Positions 64-6,579 are shown, counted from the first letter of the stretch. The stretch is DNA of 32,000 bases from Ktedonobacterales bacterium (GCA_030167145.1 CP126532.1:2640001-2672000); one strand, 5' to 3'. Program-made: numbers and translations. Notes: a model not told the origin generated them from the letters alone.

Positions 64-3000
64 CTATGGCGCGACGCCCAGCCGCCGCAGCGCCCCGCGC
101 ACATCTTCGGCGTCGGGGGATTCGACCTGCACGAAGCGGCGCAGCGCCTCGCGGTAGTGCGCGATGGCGCCGCTGCGGTTGCGGGCATCTTCGTCGAGCA
201 CAGCAAGAAACCGATGACAATAGCCGATCCCCTGAATGTCGCTCAGGCGCTCGCAGATGCTGAGGCTTTGCTCGATCATGGCGCTGCCTCGCTCTGGCTC
301 GCCTTGCTTGCGAGCCAGGAATACGCCGAAATTGCGTAGCTCATTGGATTCAGCGGCGGGATCATTGAGTTGCCGCGCTAACTCAATGGCACGCTCGTAC
401 ATCGTTCGCGCTTCGCTGAGGCGACCCTCTTGCGAGTTCAGCACCGCCAGTTCATGCACCTCGGCACGCTCCGCCGCCGGGTCGCCCAACTGTTGGGCCA
501 GCGCCAGCGCCCGCGCGTAGCCCGCCCGCGCCTCGGCCAGCCGTCCAGTCTTGCTGTCGAGCACCGCCAGTTCATGCACCTCGGCACGCTCCGCCGCCGG
601 GTCGCCCAACTGTTGGGCCAGCGCCAGCGCCCGCGCGTAGCCCGCCCGCGCCTCGGCCAGCCGTCCGGTTTGCGCGTCGAGCACCGCCAGTTCATGCACC
701 TCGGCACGCTCCGCCGCCGGGTCGCCCAACTGTTGGGCCAGCGCCAGCGCCCGCGCGTAGCCCGCCCGCGCCTCGGCCAGCCGTCCGGTTTGCGCGTCGA
801 GCACCGCCAGGGCATGCACCTCGGCTTGCTCCGCCGCCGGGTCGCCCAACTGTTGGGCCAGCGCCAGCGCCCGCGCGTAGCCCGCCCGCGCCTCGGCCAG
901 CCGTCCGGTTTGCGCGTCGAGCACCGCCAGCCCATGCACCTCGGCTTGCTCCGCCGCCGGGTCGCCCAACTGTTGGGCCAGCGCCAGCGCCCGCGCGAAG
1001 CCCGCCCGCGCCTCGGCCAGCCGTCCAGTCTTGCTGTCGAGCACCGCCAGCCCATGCACCTCGGCTTGCTCCGCCGCCGGGTCGCCCAACTGTTGGGCCA
1101 GCGCCAGCGCCCGCGCGTAGCCCGCCCGCGCCTCGGCCAGCCGTCCAGTCTTGCTGTCGAGCACCGCCAGCCCATGCACCTCGGCTTGCTCCGCCGCCGG
1201 GTCGCCCAACTGTTGGGCCAGCGCCAGCGCCCGCGCGTAGCCCGCCCGCGCCTCGGCCAGCCGGCCTAATCGCCCTAGAGTTATCGCGCGACTATGCTCC
1301 ATATATTGGACTTCCGCCTTATCGTCCAATGATTGTGCCGCTTCCAGCGCCAGCGTATCTATGTGGAGTTCCTCGTCTCGTCGTCCTCGTGTGTCCCATG
1401 CTCGTCCCAAGGTCTTCGCCAGTGCTAGCACGTCGCGGTGGCGGGCGTGGTCGTGTGCCCAGGTGAGCGCGCCCATCAGGCCGGGCGCTTCGGCTTCGAG
1501 CGCGTCCATGCCGTCGTAGCCGGGATGCGCGCGGGCGTAGGCGAGCCAGTAGGCGATGAGGGTGTCGCCGAGACGGTCAGCGGTGGGGGTGGGGAGTTGG
1601 CGCAGGCGGGCGGCGGCGTACTCGCGCAGCAGTGGATGCAGGCGCAGGCGCGGGCCGGTGGCGCTGGCGAGCGGCTCGACCAAGCGCAGGGTGACGAGCG
1701 CGGCGACGGCGGCTTCGGCGTCAGCGGCAGTAGTGGGCACGGGCGGCGACGGGTCTGGCTGGTCCGGCTGGCCTGGTATGTCCAGGGTGGCGAGGGCGAG
1801 CGCGGCGGCGCGGGGGAAGCTGGGGCCGCTGATGAGCGCGAGACCGGCGAAGAGGCGCTGCTGCGCAGGAGTGAGCACATCCCAGGAGCGGTCGAAGCGC
1901 GAGACGATGGCCTTGCGGGGATTGCTCTTGAAGGCGGCGGCGTTGATGCCGTCGCGGGCATGCTGTGCGCGGATGTCGGGCAGGGAGAGACCTTGCACAC
2001 CGGCATAGGCGGCGGTCAGCTCGATGGCCAGCGGCAGACCGCCCAACTCTTCGACGATGGCGTCTAGCTCTGGGCGCTCCTCGGCGGTGGGGCGTGCGCC
2101 CTCGGTGTTCTGCGCGAGGATACGGGCGAACATCTCGGCGGCGGGCACATCGTCCAAGGGGGAGAGCACGAGCGGCGTGAGGCGGGCATCGGGGATGGCG
2201 TCGCGGGCGGTGAGCAGCAGGGCGACGTGGCCGGGGACGGCGAGGGCATCGAGCAGCGCGGCGGCGGGCAGCGCAGGCTCGACGTTATCGAGGGCGATGA
2301 GGGTGCGCGGGCGTTCGGCGAGCGCGTCGGTGAGGGCGACCCGGCGGGTGTCGGGGTCGGCCACTTCGGCGATCTGGCGGAGTTGTAGTTCTTCGGCGAC
2401 GCGCCGCCAGAGTTCGGCGAGGCCGCTGGCTCCGGCGAGGTCTTCGCAGGAGATCCAGGCGAAGCCGCCGGGGAAGTCATCGGCATGGGATTCGGCGAGG
2501 CGGGCGACGGCTTCGGCGGCGAGGGCGGTCTTGCCGACACCGGCGATACCCTCGATGGCGAAGACGCCAACGGGGGCGCTGGCGGCGGTAAGCGCGGTGG
2601 CGAGCTTCTCTAGCTTGTCGTCGCGGCCCAGGAGTCCGGCGGCGCGAGGCAGGCCGGAGCGCGCGGCGATGATGCTGGGGACGGCGGGTGCGCTGGGCTG
2701 CGGCAGGTGGCGGAGGAGATAACTGGTGATGGCGGAGACGACCTGTTTGGCGAGGTTATCGGGCGTGGTGAAATAGCCGGGGGTATGGAGATCGGGATTG
2801 GCGAGGTGCGCGCGGAAGGCGTGGAGTTGCGCGGCGTGTTCGTGGTCGCGCAGGGCGACGGGGAAGAGGCTGTAGTTCTCTTCGGTGGCGGAATCGGCGA
2901 GGAAGACGAAGATGGGCTTTTTCAGTCGTACCGCCTCCTCGTATTCCTGGTGAGTGATGGAACGGGTCTCGCCAGGGGGAATAGTGGGGATGGAGCCGTA

Positions 3001-3693
3001 GCGCCAGGCGACGATGAGCACGACATACTCGGCTGAGTCGAGTTTGTCAGTGGAGACGGTGGCGGCGGCTTCGCCGGCGGCGAACTGAGCCATATCCACG
3101 ACGTACTGTTCGGTGCTTTCGAGGCTGTCATGCACGACACGGCGGTATTCGATGAGATCTATATACGTGGAACTGAGGAAGATGCGGCGGGTGATGCTGG
3201 TAGGCTGCGGGACGACGGGCGCAGGCGCGGGTAGCGTGTCGCGCACGGCCTTGGCGGTGGCGGCAGGGATGTCGGCAATATCGGCGCGCATGGCGGCGTT
3301 CTGGCCTTCGATACGCGCGACGCCCGTCTGAGTAGCGGCCCCCTGGTCTTCGATGCGGTCCAGCGCGGCGGGGATGCCAGCGTTGGCGGCGAGCTGCGAT
3401 TGTCTGGCGCGGAAGGCGAGCAGGGTGAGCCAGCCCATGAAGATCAGCAGCAGCGATTCGAGCGCGACGCAGGCGGCCTGGAGCAACGGCGATTGCTGGC
3501 GCAGCCAGTCGAAGAAGCTGGGGAGAGCGGAGAGCAGCGGCGGGGCGGCGTGCGCGCCGAGATACTGGGCCGCGCCAAAGGCAAAGTAGACGGCGAAGGT
3601 CCACCAGAGCAGCAGCAGCGCCCGCGCGAGCCAGTGGGCTAGGCCGGTGGGAGCGCGGGTGGCCGGTCGGGTTTCGGTCTGGATGGTGGTCAT
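64..3693 (-). CDS. Membrane-anchored STAND/NLR-like NTPase: 2 N-terminal TM helices + DUF4062 (TIR-like fold) + NB-ARC-type P-loop NTPase + C-terminal TPR array
   Basis: 1209-aa ORF with GAGGAGGG RBS just upstream of the ATG at 3693. Hydrophobic helices LLLLWWTFAVYFAFGAA and LESLLLIFMGWLTLLAF. DUF4062-like block RRIFLSSTYIDLIEYRRVV...YVVLIVAWRYGSIP...THQEYEEAVRLKKPIFVFL. Walker A GIAGVGKTALA and Walker B-like TLIALDNVE. Then about 9 TPR-like 40-aa repeats. Confidence 0.85.
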   Translation of the reverse strand: MTTIQTETRPATRAPTGLAHWLARALLLLWWTFAVYFAFGAAQYLGAHAAPPLLSALPSFFDWLRQQSPLLQAACVALESLLLIFMGWLTLLAFRARQSQLAANAGIPAALDRIEDQGAATQTGVARIEGQNAAMRADIADIPAATAKAVRDTLPAPAPVVPQPTSITRRIFLSSTYIDLIEYRRVVHDSLESTEQYVVDMAQFAAGEAAATVSTDKLDSAEYVVLIVAWRYGSIPTIPPGETRSITHQEYEEAVRLKKPIFVFLADSATEENYSLFPVALRDHEHAAQLHAFRAHLANPDLHTPGYFTTPDNLAKQVVSAITSYLLRHLPQPSAPAVPSIIAARSGLPRAAGLLGRDDKLEKLATALTAASAPVGVFAIEGIAGVGKTALAAEAVARLAESHADDFPGGFAWISCEDLAGASGLAELWRRVAEELQLRQIAEVADPDTRRVALTDALAERPRTLIALDNVEPALPAAALLDALAVPGHVALLLTARDAIPDARLTPLVLSPLDDVPAAEMFARILAQNTEGARPTAEERPELDAIVEELGGLPLAIELTAAYAGVQGLSLPDIRAQHARDGINAAAFKSNPRKAIVSRFDRSWDVLTPAQQRLFAGLALISGPSFPRAAALALATLDIPGQPDQPDPSPPVPTTAADAEAAVAALVTLRLVEPLASATGPRLRLHPLLREYAAARLRQLPTPTADRLGDTLIAYWLAYARAHPGYDGMDALEAEAPGLMGALTWAHDHARHRDVLALAKTLGRAWDTRGRRDEELHIDTLALEAAQSLDDKAEVQYMEHSRAITLGRLGRLAEARAGYARALALAQQLGDPAAEQAEVHGLAVLDSKTGRLAEARAGYARALALAQQLGDPAAEQAEVHGLAVLDSKTGRLAEARAGFARALALAQQLGDPAAEQAEVHGLAVLDAQTGRLAEARAGYARALALAQQLGDPAAEQAEVHALAVLDAQTGRLAEARAGYARALALAQQLGDPAAERAEVHELAVLDAQTGRLAEARAGYARALALAQQLGDPAAERAEVHELAVLDSKTGRLAEARAGYARALALAQQLGDPAAERAEVHELAVLNSQEGRLSEARTMYERAIELARQLNDPAAESNELRNFGVFLARKQGEPERGSAMIEQSLSICERLSDIQGIGYCHRFLAVLDEDARNRSGAIAHYREALRRFVQVESPDAEDVRGALRRLGVAP
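430..1265. repeat. Seven head-to-tail, near-identical 120-bp tandem repeats (coding, in frame; 40-aa TPR-like units of the STAND protein)
   Basis: Direct reading: the 60-nt half-unit gtcgcccaactgttgggccagcgccagcgcccgcgcgtagcccgcccgcgcctcggccag recurs at 481, 601, 721, 841, 961, 1081 and 1201, with one substitution in the 961 copy. The other half-unit differs only in three small patches. Confidence 0.95.
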
Positions 3694-3808
3694 GCCGCCC
3701 TCCTCACACTCTGGGTGGATGCCGCGTCTGGTTGACGCAGGCTTGCGGGCAGGATAACAGATTCTAGCGAGAATCGCAAGTACGGGCAGGTGAATGTAAC
3801 GACAAAAC

Positions 3809-3832
3809 GGGCATCCGCCGGACGCCCCTACG
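3809..3832. repeat. REP-like hairpin element (gggcatcc-gcc-ggacgccc-ctacg), inverted copy of the family seen at 10067-10091
   Basis: 8-nt arms with 3-nt loop followed by CTACG. Reverse complement is cgtag-gggcgtcc-ggc-ggatgccc, near identical to 10068-10091. Confidence 0.6.
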
Positions 3833-3962
3833 CATGGTGGTGATCGTGGAATCCGCTGTCGCGGGTTGGGGCCGCCGAGACGGCGGCGGCATATGGGTGC
3901 GCTGCTTGCCCAGCGCCGGTATACTGGTGACGGTGCCGATCAGCGAGGAGGGAGTGTCAGCG

Positions 3963-5531
3963 ATGCCCGAAGAGACGGCTGAAGATCCAGCGTTGCCCGC
4001 GCGGCCTGCCAGCGACGACCGCGATGGATGGGCGGCGTATTGGCAGGAGCAGGGGCAGCCCTGGCGTACCGAGCCAGAGATTGACGGCGAGCGGCAGCGG
4101 GTGCTCGCGGCGCGGCGCGATCAGCCACACGGCAACACGGCGGCTGCGCCCTTCGCGGGCATCGAGCCAGGGTTGACGCGAGCGGACATCGAATGGCTGC
4201 TGGCGGCGCACGAGGATGGACGCGGGCCGGTGGACTGGCGCGACGAGCGCCAGCGCACACGCGCGGGGCTGGACCTGCGCGGCGCGCAGCTTGCGGGCGC
4301 GCATCTGGCGGGGCTGCCACTGGCGCGGCTGCGCGCGGGGCTGACCTCGGATGAATGGCGCAACGCCAGCGCGCGGCGCATGGAAGGCGCGGCGGGCCAT
4401 TTCGAGCGCGCGGACCTGACCGGCGCGCAGCTAGAGGGCGCGGTGCTGGAAGGCGTGCATTTGGAGGGCGCGCGGCTGCGTGGCGCGGCGCTGGAACAGG
4501 CGAACCTCAGCTTCGTCTTGCTCGAAGGCGCGACACTCTCCGAGGCGAATCTGGAGCGCGCGGACCTGACCGGCGCGCATATGGACGGCGCGATGCTCCC
4601 CGATGCGCGGCTGGCGGGGGCGACGCTGACCCGCGCGATGCTGGCGGGCGCGGATCTCTCCGACGCGCACCTGGAGGGCGCGCGGTTGGTGGCGGCGCGG
4701 CTCGGCGGGCGCACGCTGGAGGACGCGGCGCTGGCGCGGATTCGGCGCGGCTGGCCCGATGCGCCCGCAACGCTCCCTGGCGCGAACCTCTGCGGCGCAT
4801 TCTTCGACAACGCCACCGCGCTGGATGAAGCGGCGCTGGGCGACGAGACGGCGGAGGGTGGTGTGGCGCTGGCGGATCTGCGCTGGGGCGGCGCGAATCT
4901 GGCGGTGATAGATTGGGCGCTGCTGAAGACGCTGGGCGACGAACGCGAGGCCCGCGAAGCCGCGCACACCGGCAATAAGCCGAAGGATGACGCGCTGCGC
5001 CTCGCCGAATATCGCACCGCCGTCCGCGCGAATCGCCAGCTTGCCGTCGCGCTGCGCGAGCAGGGGCTGAACGAAGAGGCCGACCGCTTCGCTTATCGCG
5101 CGCATACCTTGCAACGCGCGGTGTATCTGCGCCAGGCGCTGCGGTCCAGCGCTCCGCGTGGGCGGCCGGGGGCGCGGCGCAGCGAGATCGGCCAGCGGCT
5201 GCTGCGCTTCGGCCAGTATGTGTTCTCGCTCTTCCTCGACGCGCTGGCTGGCTATGGCTATCGCCCCGGACGCAGCCTCGTGGCGTACATCGGATCGCTA
5301 GTGGTCTTCGCCGCGCTCTACTACGTCGTCGGGCAGCATACCGGCGCGCGGCTGGATGCCGTCGAAGCGATCTCGCTCAGCATCAACTCGTTTCATGGGC
5401 GCGGCTTCTTCCCCGGCACCGTGACGCCCAGCGACGCGGTGACCCTGCTGACGGCGGTGCAGGCGATCCTGGGGCTGGTGATCGAAATCAGCTTCATCGC
5501 CACCTTCACGCAGCGGTTCTTCGGGCGCTGA
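3963..5531 (+). CDS. Pentapeptide-repeat protein with C-terminal 2-TM pore-loop-like membrane domain
   Basis: ATG at 3963 preceded by GAGGAGGGAG RBS. The longer ORF from 3834 overlaps the REP-like element and reads as non-protein-like. Long run of A(D/N)LxG-type pentapeptides (ADLTGAQLEGAVLEGVHLEGARLRGAALEQANLSFVLLEGATLSEANLERADLTGAHMDGAML...). C-terminus has two hydrophobic helices flanking SINSFHGRGFFPG. Confidence 0.8.
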   Translation: MPEETAEDPALPARPASDDRDGWAAYWQEQGQPWRTEPEIDGERQRVLAARRDQPHGNTAAAPFAGIEPGLTRADIEWLLAAHEDGRGPVDWRDERQRTRAGLDLRGAQLAGAHLAGLPLARLRAGLTSDEWRNASARRMEGAAGHFERADLTGAQLEGAVLEGVHLEGARLRGAALEQANLSFVLLEGATLSEANLERADLTGAHMDGAMLPDARLAGATLTRAMLAGADLSDAHLEGARLVAARLGGRTLEDAALARIRRGWPDAPATLPGANLCGAFFDNATALDEAALGDETAEGGVALADLRWGGANLAVIDWALLKTLGDEREAREAAHTGNKPKDDALRLAEYRTAVRANRQLAVALREQGLNEEADRFAYRAHTLQRAVYLRQALRSSAPRGRPGARRSEIGQRLLRFGQYVFSLFLDALAGYGYRPGRSLVAYIGSLVVFAALYYVVGQHTGARLDAVEAISLSINSFHGRGFFPGTVTPSDAVTLLTAVQAILGLVIEISFIATFTQRFFGR

Positions 5532-5584: not shown

Positions 5585-5899
5585 ATGGCCTATTCGATCA
5601 CCTTGACGGACGCAGAATACGCGGCGCTGGCGGCTGAGTCGGCGGCGCGCGGCACAACGATAGACGCGCTGGTGCATCAGACGCTGGCCGAACGCGCCAG
5701 CGCGCCCACCCCAGCTAAACAACCGATGACCGATGACGAATTCGAGCAACTGCTGTTTCGCAAGGGCATCATCGTGGCTATTCCAACAGGCGAACTAGAC
5801 TCGCCAGACGAAGAGGATGAGCTTGATGAGATAGCTCAGCGCGTTGGGCCAGGTAAGCCAGCTTCGGAAATGATAATCGAAGATCGGGGGCCGCGTTGA
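5585..5899 (+). CDS. Small RHH/antitoxin-like protein
   Basis: 104 aa. N-terminus MAYSITLTDAEYAALAAESAARGTTIDALVHQTL resembles a ribbon-helix-helix beta-strand plus helices. Acidic middle and C-terminal ...PASEMIIEDRGPR tail are typical of VapB-style antitoxins. Stop TGA overlaps the next ATG (TGATG). Confidence 0.55.
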   Translation: MAYSITLTDAEYAALAAESAARGTTIDALVHQTLAERASAPTPAKQPMTDDEFEQLLFRKGIIVAIPTGELDSPDEEDELDEIAQRVGPGKPASEMIIEDRGPR

Positions 5900-6579
5900 T
5901 GGCGAACACCCCTGCGAATCAGCCAGCCAGCAAAGCGCCATTTCATCTGAAAGAACCGGGGCCCAGCGTCACCCAGATACTCATTGCTACCGCCGGCACG
6001 CTGCTGATCGGCGTGCTGTATTACGTGCTGCCTGATTCCATTCGACTGGGGCCGCCGTGGCTGCTGTTGGTGTTGCTGGCGCTGCTGGCGATTCCGCCAG
6101 CAGTCTGGGTGCTCGTCCGGCGGCAGCGGATGCCGTATCGCACGGCGCGGACGCTGGCGATTGCGCTGCTGGTGGTGCTGACCGTCGCGCTGATCGGCTC
6201 GGTGGAGCAACTGCTGCGCTTCCTGCCAAACGCCACCGCCGCCCAGCTCTTGCGGCCGGGCGCGCTGCTCTGGATCAGCAATATATTGGTCTTCGCGGTG
6301 TGGTACTGGGAGACCGACGGCGGCGGACCTGGGAAGCGTCACCATCGCGGCCACCGGGCGGTTGACTTCCAATTTCCGCAGCAGGCCGACGGCAACACCA
6401 CGCATTGGGCCTCCGGCTTTGTTGACTACCTCTTCCTCGCCTTCTGCACGGCCACCGCGTTCAGCCCTACCGATACCATGCCGCTCACGCACCGCGCCAA
6501 GCTGCTGATGATGATCCAATCCGTCATCTCGCTGCTGATCCTCGGCGTGCTGATCGCCCGCACCGTCAATATCATCTGA
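5899..6579 (+). CDS. DUF1345-like polytopic membrane protein
   Basis: About 226 aa with 4-5 hydrophobic helices. C-terminal FVDYLFLAFCTATAFSPTDTMPLTHRAKLLMMIQSVISLLILGVLIARTVNII resembles the DUF1345 signature as I recall it. ATG at 5899 overlaps the upstream stop by 1 nt. Confidence 0.65.
   Translation: MANTPANQPASKAPFHLKEPGPSVTQILIATAGTLLIGVLYYVLPDSIRLGPPWLLLVLLALLAIPPAVWVLVRRQRMPYRTARTLAIALLVVLTVALIGSVEQLLRFLPNATAAQLLRPGALLWISNILVFAVWYWETDGGGPGKRHHRGHRAVDFQFPQQADGNTTHWASGFVDYLFLAFCTATAFSPTDTMPLTHRAKLLMMIQSVISLLILGVLIARTVNII

Follow-up and report, generated by a model that had tools for sequence, protein, structure and literature searches.

A Ktedonobacterales protein with a predicted membrane hairpin ahead of a DUF4062-NB-ARC-TPR chassis: a candidate NLR-like receptor with a putative NADase effector

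The DNA considered here, called the window throughout, is a stretch of 32,000 nucleotides from a Ktedonobacterales bacterium (GCA_030167145.1, CP126532.1:2640001-2672000), and the element of interest is the gene that occupies its positions 64..3693, on the minus strand, as do all the features of the gene mentioned below. It consists of one uninterrupted open reading frame (ORF) with an ATG start, taken from the ORF list, and its product, of 1209 amino acids (aa), combines, from the N-terminus onwards, two predicted transmembrane (TM) helices, a linker, a DUF4062 domain, an NB-ARC nucleoside triphosphatase (NTPase) and a TPR array. The exact sequence is also found at JGI and NCBI, both of which predict the identical 1209-aa product (WIG59789.1, locus OJF49_002536, “hypothetical protein”), and the source of that entry is a metagenome-assembled genome (MAG) of a Ktedonobacterales bacterium from soil, with a contig of 5.07 Mb. 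This architecture makes the protein a candidate NLR-like receptor of the STAND type, in which DUF4062 would be the killing module.

The DUF4062 domain (aa ~168-330; 2704..3192) was delimited by Pfam, by profile search, by an AlphaFold2 (AF2) model and by Foldseek. PF13271 is matched over aa 170-254, the Pfam core, with the full length of the profile (E=1.2e-14, 54.7 bits vs a cut-off of 24.7), and the motifs from which the initial annotation, made from the sequence alone, had read a domain of this type are in place, with RIFLSS at residue 170, WRYG at 230 and KPIFVFL at 259. The model of the domain contains five strands (170-175, 197-200, 223-228, 261-266 and 306-308) and five helices, with a predicted local distance difference test (pLDDT) score of ~90-97. 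The structural comparison that had been proposed as a check retrieves the TIR domains of SARM1, RUN1, RPS4/RRS1 and TIR-STING (E=4e-4 to 6e-3) and, in the same range of E values, N-deoxyribosyltransferase/N-glycosidase folds. The predicted catalytic residue, located by alignment, is the Glu of the sequence T-H-Q-E-Y, i.e., E250 (codon 2944..2946): E250 and Y251, which form the “E-Y” motif, are invariant across 15 aligned DUF4062 domains, and E250 marks the start of helix C in the model. Furthermore, a profile of the aligned domains matches the solved chain of the bacterial protein KpSwz with E=3.4e-20 and the TIR-like domain of human TEP1 with E=8.3e-6. The invariant Glu aligns with an Ala of the deposited KpSwz chain (10wc), which is the structure of an E97A mutant, and this Ala is position 97, because a shift of +13 in the chain index also brings R18 and D71 to the numbers that the corresponding paper gives them.

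DUF4062 has been described as a TIR-like NADase whose products are ADP-ribose and nicotinamide (Osinski et al., 10.64898/2026.05.01.722283). In the same work, Swarozyc (KpSwz, catalytic E97) exerts a portal-activated abortive infection via DUF4062, the DUF4062 domain of human TEP1 is active as a NADase (catalytic E1008) and, in human TEP1, NWD1, NWD2 and NPHP3, DUF4062 adjoins a NACHT NTPase (10.64898/2026.05.01.722283). The Evangelion family also has DUF4062 with a catalytic “E-Y” motif, and bacterial TEP1-like DUF4062-NACHT-WD40 proteins are mentioned in that report (Ibarra-Chavez et al., 10.64898/2026.06.25.731849). As an abortive-infection effector, the domain requires its catalytic Glu (10.64898/2026.05.01.722283; 10.64898/2026.06.25.731849). 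By its score, its predicted fold and its catalytic Glu, the DUF4062 domain of the query protein belongs to this TIR-like NADase family, and NADase activity is predicted for it; the suggestion of the initial annotation that DUF4062 is the signalling or effector module gains support both from this 2026 literature and from the retention of E250.

The NB-ARC NTPase (aa 358-561; 2011..2622) was identified by PF00931 (E=6.2e-12, 45.7 bits vs a cut-off of 23.5) and by a motif scan, which locates Walker A (GIAGVGKT, aa 382-389; 2527-2550) and Walker B (LIALDN, aa 465-470, the opening of LIALDNVE, aa 465-472; 2278-2301), the two sequences in which an NB-ARC-like P-loop had been seen before, together with sensor-1 (LLLTAR, aa 492) and GLPL (GGLPLA, aa 551). 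It continues into the winged-helix/helical arm of the STAND module (aa 562-700; 1594..2010), delimited by the motif scan, the AF2 model and Foldseek and bearing an MHD-like sequence, RLRLHPLL (aa 682-689; 1627-1650). With every canonical motif present, the module is, to judge by sequence, a STAND NTPase of the NB-ARC (AP-ATPase) type. Its best sequence matches in the PDB are AfsR (E=5.5e-9) and Apaf-1 (E=6.2e-7), and NCBIfam yields nothing above its cut-offs, only a partial AfsR-like similarity. The AF2 model of aa 160-1209 has a pLDDT of 85 and finds as its top Foldseek match the archaeal STAND-TPR protein 6mfv (E=1.5e-13), followed by the TPR domains of LGN/Pins, the NB-ARC domains of plant NLRs and Apaf-1.

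The C-terminal TPR solenoid (aa ~770-1209; 67..1386) is presumed to be the ligand sensor. TPR_12 matches it in 8 stretches (E=1.5e-24) and its helix pairs are modelled as a continuous helical-repeat solenoid at pLDDT 90-97, which upholds the TPR array of the initial annotation and, with it, the repeat sensor that closes the tripartite layout (N-terminal effector or adaptor, central STAND NTPase, C-terminal repeats) to which the protein had been assigned. Within it, Tandem Repeats Finder (TRF) detects seven near-identical TPR-like units of 40 aa (120 bp) at aa 810-1089 (427..1266), with a period of 120, 6.9 copies and 97% matches at the DNA level. As many as 31 of the 40 codons are the same in all seven units, and the differences, which concentrate at positions 10, 27, 32 and 37-40, are mostly nonsynonymous, often multi-nucleotide and mosaic in their arrangement, a pattern that suggests exchange between units. 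Highly conserved internal repeats are a hallmark of fungal and bacterial NLR-like proteins (10.1101/2020.01.06.895854), and near-identical repeats with mosaic hypervariable codons are features of the kind expected from a conflict gene.

At its other end, the protein reads MTTIQTETRPATRAP, and the first hydrophobic stretch begins at about aa 21. Two TM helices are predicted: the first (aa 25-47; 3553..3621) is uncharged and contains WW, as found by hydropathy, charge count and an AF2 helix, and the second (aa 70-94; 3412..3486) has one Glu and is followed by R-A-R, with a hydropathy peak of 2.11 and an AF2 helix at 69-105. The N-terminal helices of the model span residues 18-67 and 69-105 (block pLDDT 70-92), so that the two TM helices of the initial annotation are borne out by hydropathy and by modelling alike. 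The segment that joins them to DUF4062 (aa 95-167; 3193..3411) has low-confidence helices and a Pro/Ala-rich end, and its residues 106-165 are poorly ordered in the model, with short helices at pLDDT 44-73; of the “short coiled segment” read there before, the short helices are recovered, although with low confidence. Lys and Arg residues number 3, 1 and 3 in the N-terminal tail, the loop and the segment after the second helix, respectively, and because of this distribution and the positive-inside rule the hairpin is predicted to have an N-in/C-in topology, which would fit DUF4062, NB-ARC and TPR lying on the cytoplasmic face.

Since long spurious ORFs are common in the window, whose G+C content is 60-74%, the translation of aa 1-165 was examined. 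Inspection of the sequence shows a Shine-Dalgarno motif, GAGGAGG (3699..3705), separated by 5 nt from the ATG at 3693, and the GC content by codon position of this region (0.71/0.55/0.855) follows the pattern of the rest of the gene and of the neighbouring genes. Because of these two features, the N-terminal extension is, as far as sequence can tell, truly translated and not an over-extension of the ORF in GC-rich DNA. No sigma-70-like promoter was found in the 5' intergenic region of the gene. In that region, ~115 nt upstream of the start codon, there is a GC-rich, terminator-like hairpin with a T-rich tail (window 3809-3827, minus strand; 2 overlapping sites in the hairpin scan vs 0.1 expected in shuffles), which could be an insulator or an attenuator, or be there by chance.

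The closest relative of the query is a paralogue encoded on the same contig (P0001), 71% identical over aa 155-1075 and devoid of the TM region; the similarity begins at aa 155, exactly at the linker/DUF4062 junction. In the homologues P0002, P0004 and P0005 (44-50% identity), by contrast, DUF4062 is preceded by two hydrophobic helices and a linker, and comparable TM N-termini occur in P0002, P0004, P0005, P0052, P0071 and P0085, as well as in two Ktedonobacterales loci, L008 and L009. In P0006, P0007 and P0009, a similar module of two TM helices and a coil (2-TM+coil) is joined straight to NB-ARC-TPR, without DUF4062, and the NB-ARC regions of these proteins are 49-57% identical to that of the query. 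P0008 instead bears a zinc ribbon and a TIR domain. Word-indexed homologue searches returned 4 matches with the DUF4062 domain alone and 3 with the 2-TM profile. In a rough neighbour-joining tree of the NB-ARC regions, which lacks support values, the query and P0001 nest among the STANDs that have only the TM module, a placement that would fit common descent, with the TM module later lost in P0001.

A profile of the 2-TM+coil module finds 46 proteins at E<=1e-3 among 1.84 billion cluster representatives. Of the 20 members of at least 447 aa, 18 carry NB-ARC, NACHT or AAA_16 and the other 2 DUF7779 and TPR, while DUF4062 stands between the module and the NTPase in 3 of the 20; the short matches mostly resemble fragments of the same architecture, and four of them extend into the P-loop. 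The motifs conserved in the family are WW, PLAQG, WWxGVQSQ and YP. A Pfam scan of seven of these modules gave no family, only transporter noise and DUF4231 at E=0.37, and kinship to SLATT or Bell domains was not demonstrable in it. The N-terminus of the query fits the layout of the family, with a basic tail, a WW-containing first TM helix, a short Trp loop, a second TM helix, a basic stretch, a coil and a STAND NTPase downstream. Against a profile built without the query, its hairpin scores a weak 8.0 bits, a value attained in 2 full shuffles out of 1000 and, when the TM layout is kept, in 5 out of 1000 (p about 0.005), and in a single BLASTP comparison with P0006 it obtains 25 bits (E=3e-4). 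Clear members of the family do occur among the close chassis relatives, such as P0004 (124 bits) and P0002 (36-40 bits). Position, layout and a weak colinear similarity are common to the query hairpin and the family, of which the query is a probable, though not a demonstrable, member. The hairpin that the initial annotation had taken for the effector's “own” tether is present, but it is probably not merely that, given that 2-TM modules also head STANDs without DUF4062.

A second view of the distribution comes from a scan for DUF4062 in a collection of species-representative genomes, in which an alignment of 5 closer sequences was used and 56 loci were obtained. Except in 3 of them, DUF4062 is close to where the open frame begins, no further than ~120 residues from it and mostly at residue 1. 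The exceptions include the two Ktedonobacterales MAG loci mentioned above (L008:1906-4851 and L009:5011-7872), which encode DUF4062-NTPase-TPR proteins with a different TM N-terminus of 2-3 hydrophobic helices and a Pro/Ala-rich linker of ~110-140 aa, with no match to the 2-TM profile; the third exception, L015, has an open frame of 1409 aa upstream of DUF4062. The TM N-termini of L008 and L009 may be independent acquisitions, or the region may diverge so fast as to escape detection, and tethering may therefore have arisen repeatedly. About one third of the 56 loci have a P-loop downstream of DUF4062, and the eight of these that were scanned with Pfam include NACHT-TPR, NACHT-HEAT(-TIR_2) and TPR_10/12 forms. 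From this sample, the DUF4062-STAND-repeat layout is judged to be widespread and membrane tethering rare, the latter being limited to Ktedonobacterales among the 56 loci; because such fusions are widespread, the DUF4062-STAND-repeat part of the query is not new. A side observation concerns actinomycete giants of ~1800-2300 aa, of which L020:7995-13325 and L030:7875-14303 were scanned, with similar ones at L034-L038, L041, L045 and L046. L030 combines DUF4062, NACHT and HEAT repeats; to this set L020 adds nSTAND3, a further STAND-like NTPase, and TIR_2 at the C-terminus, and it thereby unites two domains of the TIR type in a single protein.

Inside the window, the gene has as neighbours a divergent pentapeptide-repeat membrane protein, a pair of genes for 104-aa and 227-aa proteins, thioredoxin-like and two-component genes, and an envelope-glycosylation set. 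The pentapeptide-repeat protein (565 aa; 3834-5531, plus strand; 522 aa in the NCBI version) has a hydrophobic, channel-like C-terminal region. The pair (5585-5899 and 5896-6579, plus strand) encodes an acidic protein of 104 aa and a multi-TM protein of 227 aa with weak DUF1345 similarity, and shows a 4-bp start/stop overlap. From ~10400 to 31000 the window holds mainly cell-envelope genes (three PMT_2 mannosyltransferase-like, several GT2, a GH44-like and an LPG-synthase TM protein), along with a radical-SAM protein and a flavin mononucleotide-dependent dehydrogenase, a set that is not a defence island. On the other side, just past window position 1 and downstream of the gene (L002:13737-14413), a 79-aa gene overlaps a 149-aa gene for a PIN-domain protein, in a VapBC-like arrangement, and an ArsR-type helix-turn-helix (HTH) gene comes after this pair.

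The surroundings of the homologues are of a different sort from one to another. At L001:8205-12868 (record ~331.9-354.8 kb), P0001 is encoded directly downstream of a KAP NTPase of 559 aa with N-terminal hydrophobic helices, which matches the PADLOC models PDC-S20, PifA and QatA (E=6e-34 to 1e-28), and DDE transposases and a terminase gene are found nearby. Since an alternative GTG start of P0001 overlaps the stop of the KAP gene, this pair may be an operon that provides the membrane component in trans. The neighbourhood of P0004 includes two TIR_2 genes, Cas1, MazG-like, HNH and Bro-N; P0002 adjoins TnpB, with two TIR_2 genes nearby, and P0052 adjoins a P22 antirepressor-like gene. P0006, P0007 and P0085 lie in housekeeping neighbourhoods; at the P0006 locus (L062:7414-11051), the first 4 bp of the STAND gene are shared with an uncharacterised gene for a product of 196 aa, a possible partner. 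There is no conserved synteny among the homologues, whose neighbourhoods are unrelated, and the query is a singleton in its 90% cluster, with neighbouring proteins that have relatives of at least 90% identity in other samples. A single contig has these neighbouring genes in common with the query's genome, and it stops short of the locus. The absence of synteny, the patchy distribution and the paralogy fit a conflict gene, if indirectly.

Compared with described systems, the query shares with Swarozyc (KpSwz) and Evangelion the same PF13271 effector, the TIR-like fold and the catalytic Glu/“E-Y”, as well as the condition of a single gene with the effector N-terminal and the sensing part C-terminal. 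However, those proteins are soluble, of ~300-450 aa, and have a small auxiliary sensor (in KpSwz, an HTH/winged fold that binds the phage portal), whereas in the query this sensor is replaced by a NB-ARC-TPR STAND module of ~900 aa and a 2-TM N-terminus is added. Filing it as Swarozyc or Evangelion was ruled out on the grounds of its NB-ARC and TPR C-terminal part and its 1209 aa. With TEP1, NWD1, NWD2, NPHP3 and the bacterial TEP1-like proteins it has in common a DUF4062 immediately N-terminal to a STAND NTPase, followed by repeats; those proteins differ in having NACHT and not NB-ARC, WD40 or other repeats and not the TPR_12 type, TROVE in the case of TEP1, and no TM hairpin. The tripartite STAND architecture, which had been put forward as a defence-type layout, is certainly there, but being common to this group of proteins it is less novel than it seemed.

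The likeness to Avs and other bacterial NLR-like antiviral STANDs, whose effectors are TIR, SIR2 or TM, lies in the N-terminal effector, the central STAND NTPase and the C-terminal TPR-like sensor, and NAD+-depleting and TM effectors are both recognised categories on STANDs (PMC13581612). Unlike Avs, the query has an NTPase that groups with the AfsR, Apaf-1 and plant NB-ARC type, and two potential effector-type modules in series, the 2-TM one and then DUF4062. AfsR and the archaeal 6mfv are the closest solved relatives of its NB-ARC-TPR chassis; AfsR, though, is a transcription regulator with an N-terminal SARP DNA-binding domain, in the place of which the query has a membrane hairpin and a predicted NADase, and no DNA-binding domain. 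A further parallel is offered by the Bell, HeLo and coiled-coil (CC) domains, Bell being a hydrophobic helical N-terminal module on NB-ARC/TPR NLR-like proteins of filamentous bacteria that has been proposed as a cell-death executor (10.1101/2020.01.06.895854). The Bell domain is a five-helix bundle of ~100 aa, with a hydrophobic helix from residue 1-3 and an acidic residue at position 2-3 (10.1101/2020.01.06.895854), whereas the query has a basic tail of 20 aa, two long hydrophobic helices and a coil, with no bundle in the model. No sequence relationship of the query N-terminus to Bell, HeLo or CC was detected, Bell being compared by its published description. It had been stated that no named defence family accommodates the protein, and PADLOC-DB 2.0.0 concurs, yielding only the generic model PDLC01169 (“TPR”).

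The reading that we favour, at about an even balance of probability and by analogy with characterised systems, is that of a membrane-tethered, single-gene NLR-like (STAND) receptor with a DUF4062 NADase as killing module, which would lead to abortive infection or to the death of a compartment. At rest, the protein would be held monomeric, with its NADase off, by the TPR arm and an ADP-bound NB-ARC. The binding of a foreign protein, most likely phage-derived, to the TPR surface would release this autoinhibition, nucleotide exchange would bring about the oligomerisation of NB-ARC, and the DUF4062 domains, now arranged for activity on the inner side of the membrane, would deplete NAD+, with abortive infection or compartment death as the outcome. 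With the hairpin, assembly would be limited to the two-dimensional plane of the membrane, and a membrane-perturbing activity may come on top. These steps are modelled on Avs/NLR proteins, on KpSwz and on the model proposed for TEP1.

Several observations weigh against this receptor. Apart from a generic HTH similarity, the neighbours of the query have no match to PADLOC defence models, and there is no defence island around it; neither tRNA genes (in the window or in the loci L001 and L002) nor direct repeats flanking the gene were found, and a scan of viral contigs contained no relatives. No Avs-type model of PADLOC-DB 2.0.0 is matched by the protein itself, the TM assignment comes from hydropathy and the AF2 model only, and AfsR, to which the NTPase is closest by sequence among characterised bacterial proteins, regulates transcription and is not an immune protein. 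For the candidacy as an immune sensor advanced in the initial annotation the support is indirect: it comes from homologues that have no fixed synteny and are in some cases near defence genes, and not from the query's own neighbourhood.

Which part of the protein would do the killing? The main alternative, in our view a less likely one, is that the 2-TM+coil module is itself an execution domain, with clustered hairpins that permeabilise the membrane when NB-ARC oligomerises; the query would then be a dual-effector protein, or DUF4062 a later accessory. Plant CC-NLR resistosomes, fungal HeLo domains and bacterial TM effectors provide parallels for this, and STANDs with TM effectors form an accepted category (PMC13581612; bNACHT preprint). 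The module family is small (the 46 representatives given above) and linked to STANDs in those 18 of its 20 long members; in the members without DUF4062, the module occupies the usual place of a STAND effector and leaves no room for another domain. Because most of the STAND-bearing members lack DUF4062, the 2-TM module may itself be an effector. Its conserved polar and aromatic motifs also exceed the needs of a generic anchor, and the query and P0001 fall among the TM-only STANDs in the NB-ARC tree. On the contrary, that tree has no support values, the query hairpin matches the family poorly (8.0 bits with a profile from which it was excluded), no member has a known pore-forming activity or a Pfam family, and the helices, in their length and strong hydrophobicity, resemble those of a constitutive anchor. 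A bolder version, and a slightly more doubtful one, is that 2-TM+coil is an undescribed, STAND-specific membrane execution domain, the counterpart, as a constitutive TM hairpin, of the plant CC or fungal HeLo funnel, with a DUF4062 NADase stacked behind it in a dual-effector NLR. If this were true, one oligomeric platform assembled at the membrane would both damage the membrane and drain NAD+.

A different question is what the receptor would be for. It is rather improbable that the protein is a non-antiviral STAND switch of a filamentous, differentiating bacterium, one that would act, through NAD+ hydrolysis, in inter-mycelial self/non-self recognition, developmental death or stress signalling. 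NB-ARC/TPR NLR-like proteins with conserved repeats do typify multicellular bacteria and the incompatibility systems of fungi (10.1101/2020.01.06.895854), the NTPase has a regulator, AfsR, as its nearest characterised relative, and the query, P0006, P0007 and P0085 have housekeeping surroundings. Nevertheless, no domain for DNA binding or any other regulatory output turns up in the Pfam scan, defence or mobile genes adjoin the paralogue and several homologues, the distribution is patchy and without synteny, and all the bacterial DUF4062 proteins tested so far serve phage defence (10.64898/2026.05.01.722283; 10.64898/2026.06.25.731849).

Much less probable is the idea that DUF4062 does not deplete NAD+ but switches on a separate effector, either as a TIR-like enzyme that generates a signal or as an adaptor without catalytic function. 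Many TIR domains, such as those of Thoeris and of plants, make signalling nucleotides, and the TIR_2 genes near P0002 and P0004 would also speak for it, but no partner gene is conserved beside the query or its homologues and the catalytic Glu is intact. Moreover, the characterised DUF4062 enzymes give ADP-ribose and nicotinamide and deplete NAD+ (10.64898/2026.05.01.722283). Finally, that the first 165 aa are an annotation artefact, with the true start just ahead of DUF4062 as in P0001, is scarcely credible: this nearest relative and most DUF4062 proteins do begin at DUF4062 and the window has many long spurious ORFs, but a strong, correctly spaced Shine-Dalgarno sequence precedes the ATG at 3693, the in-frame third-position GC is 0.855 and independent homologues bear comparable TM extensions, on which grounds ORF over-extension was ruled out, and translation from the later start would create a stretch of ~600 nt in which no gene is called.

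For the favoured receptor with a predicted NADase, the use of DUF4062 as an NLR-like effector was already anticipated by what was published in 2026 on DUF4062 NADases and on their human relatives linked to STANDs. What is unusual, as read from the sequences, is the membrane hairpin ahead of the predicted NADase and the small 2-TM family, absent from Pfam and nearly confined to STAND proteins. DUF4062 has only recently been shown to be a NADase common to phage-defence proteins and to the human vault protein TEP1, and in humans it always adjoins a STAND NTPase, whereas the bacterial systems tested are small ones without NTPase. Because of the lack of an NTPase in the latter, a compact bacterial DUF4062-NB-ARC-TPR protein would be a tractable model for a STAND-triggered NADase, the switching on of a NADase by STAND oligomerisation being the mechanism speculated for TEP1, NWD1 and NWD2. 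The hairpin, in turn, raises a question of its own: does it serve for localisation, so that phage entry or assembly is sensed at the envelope, or is it a second means of killing? The 2-TM module family may represent a new effector or anchor domain, and its addition to catalogues of defence genes would be reasonable to consider.

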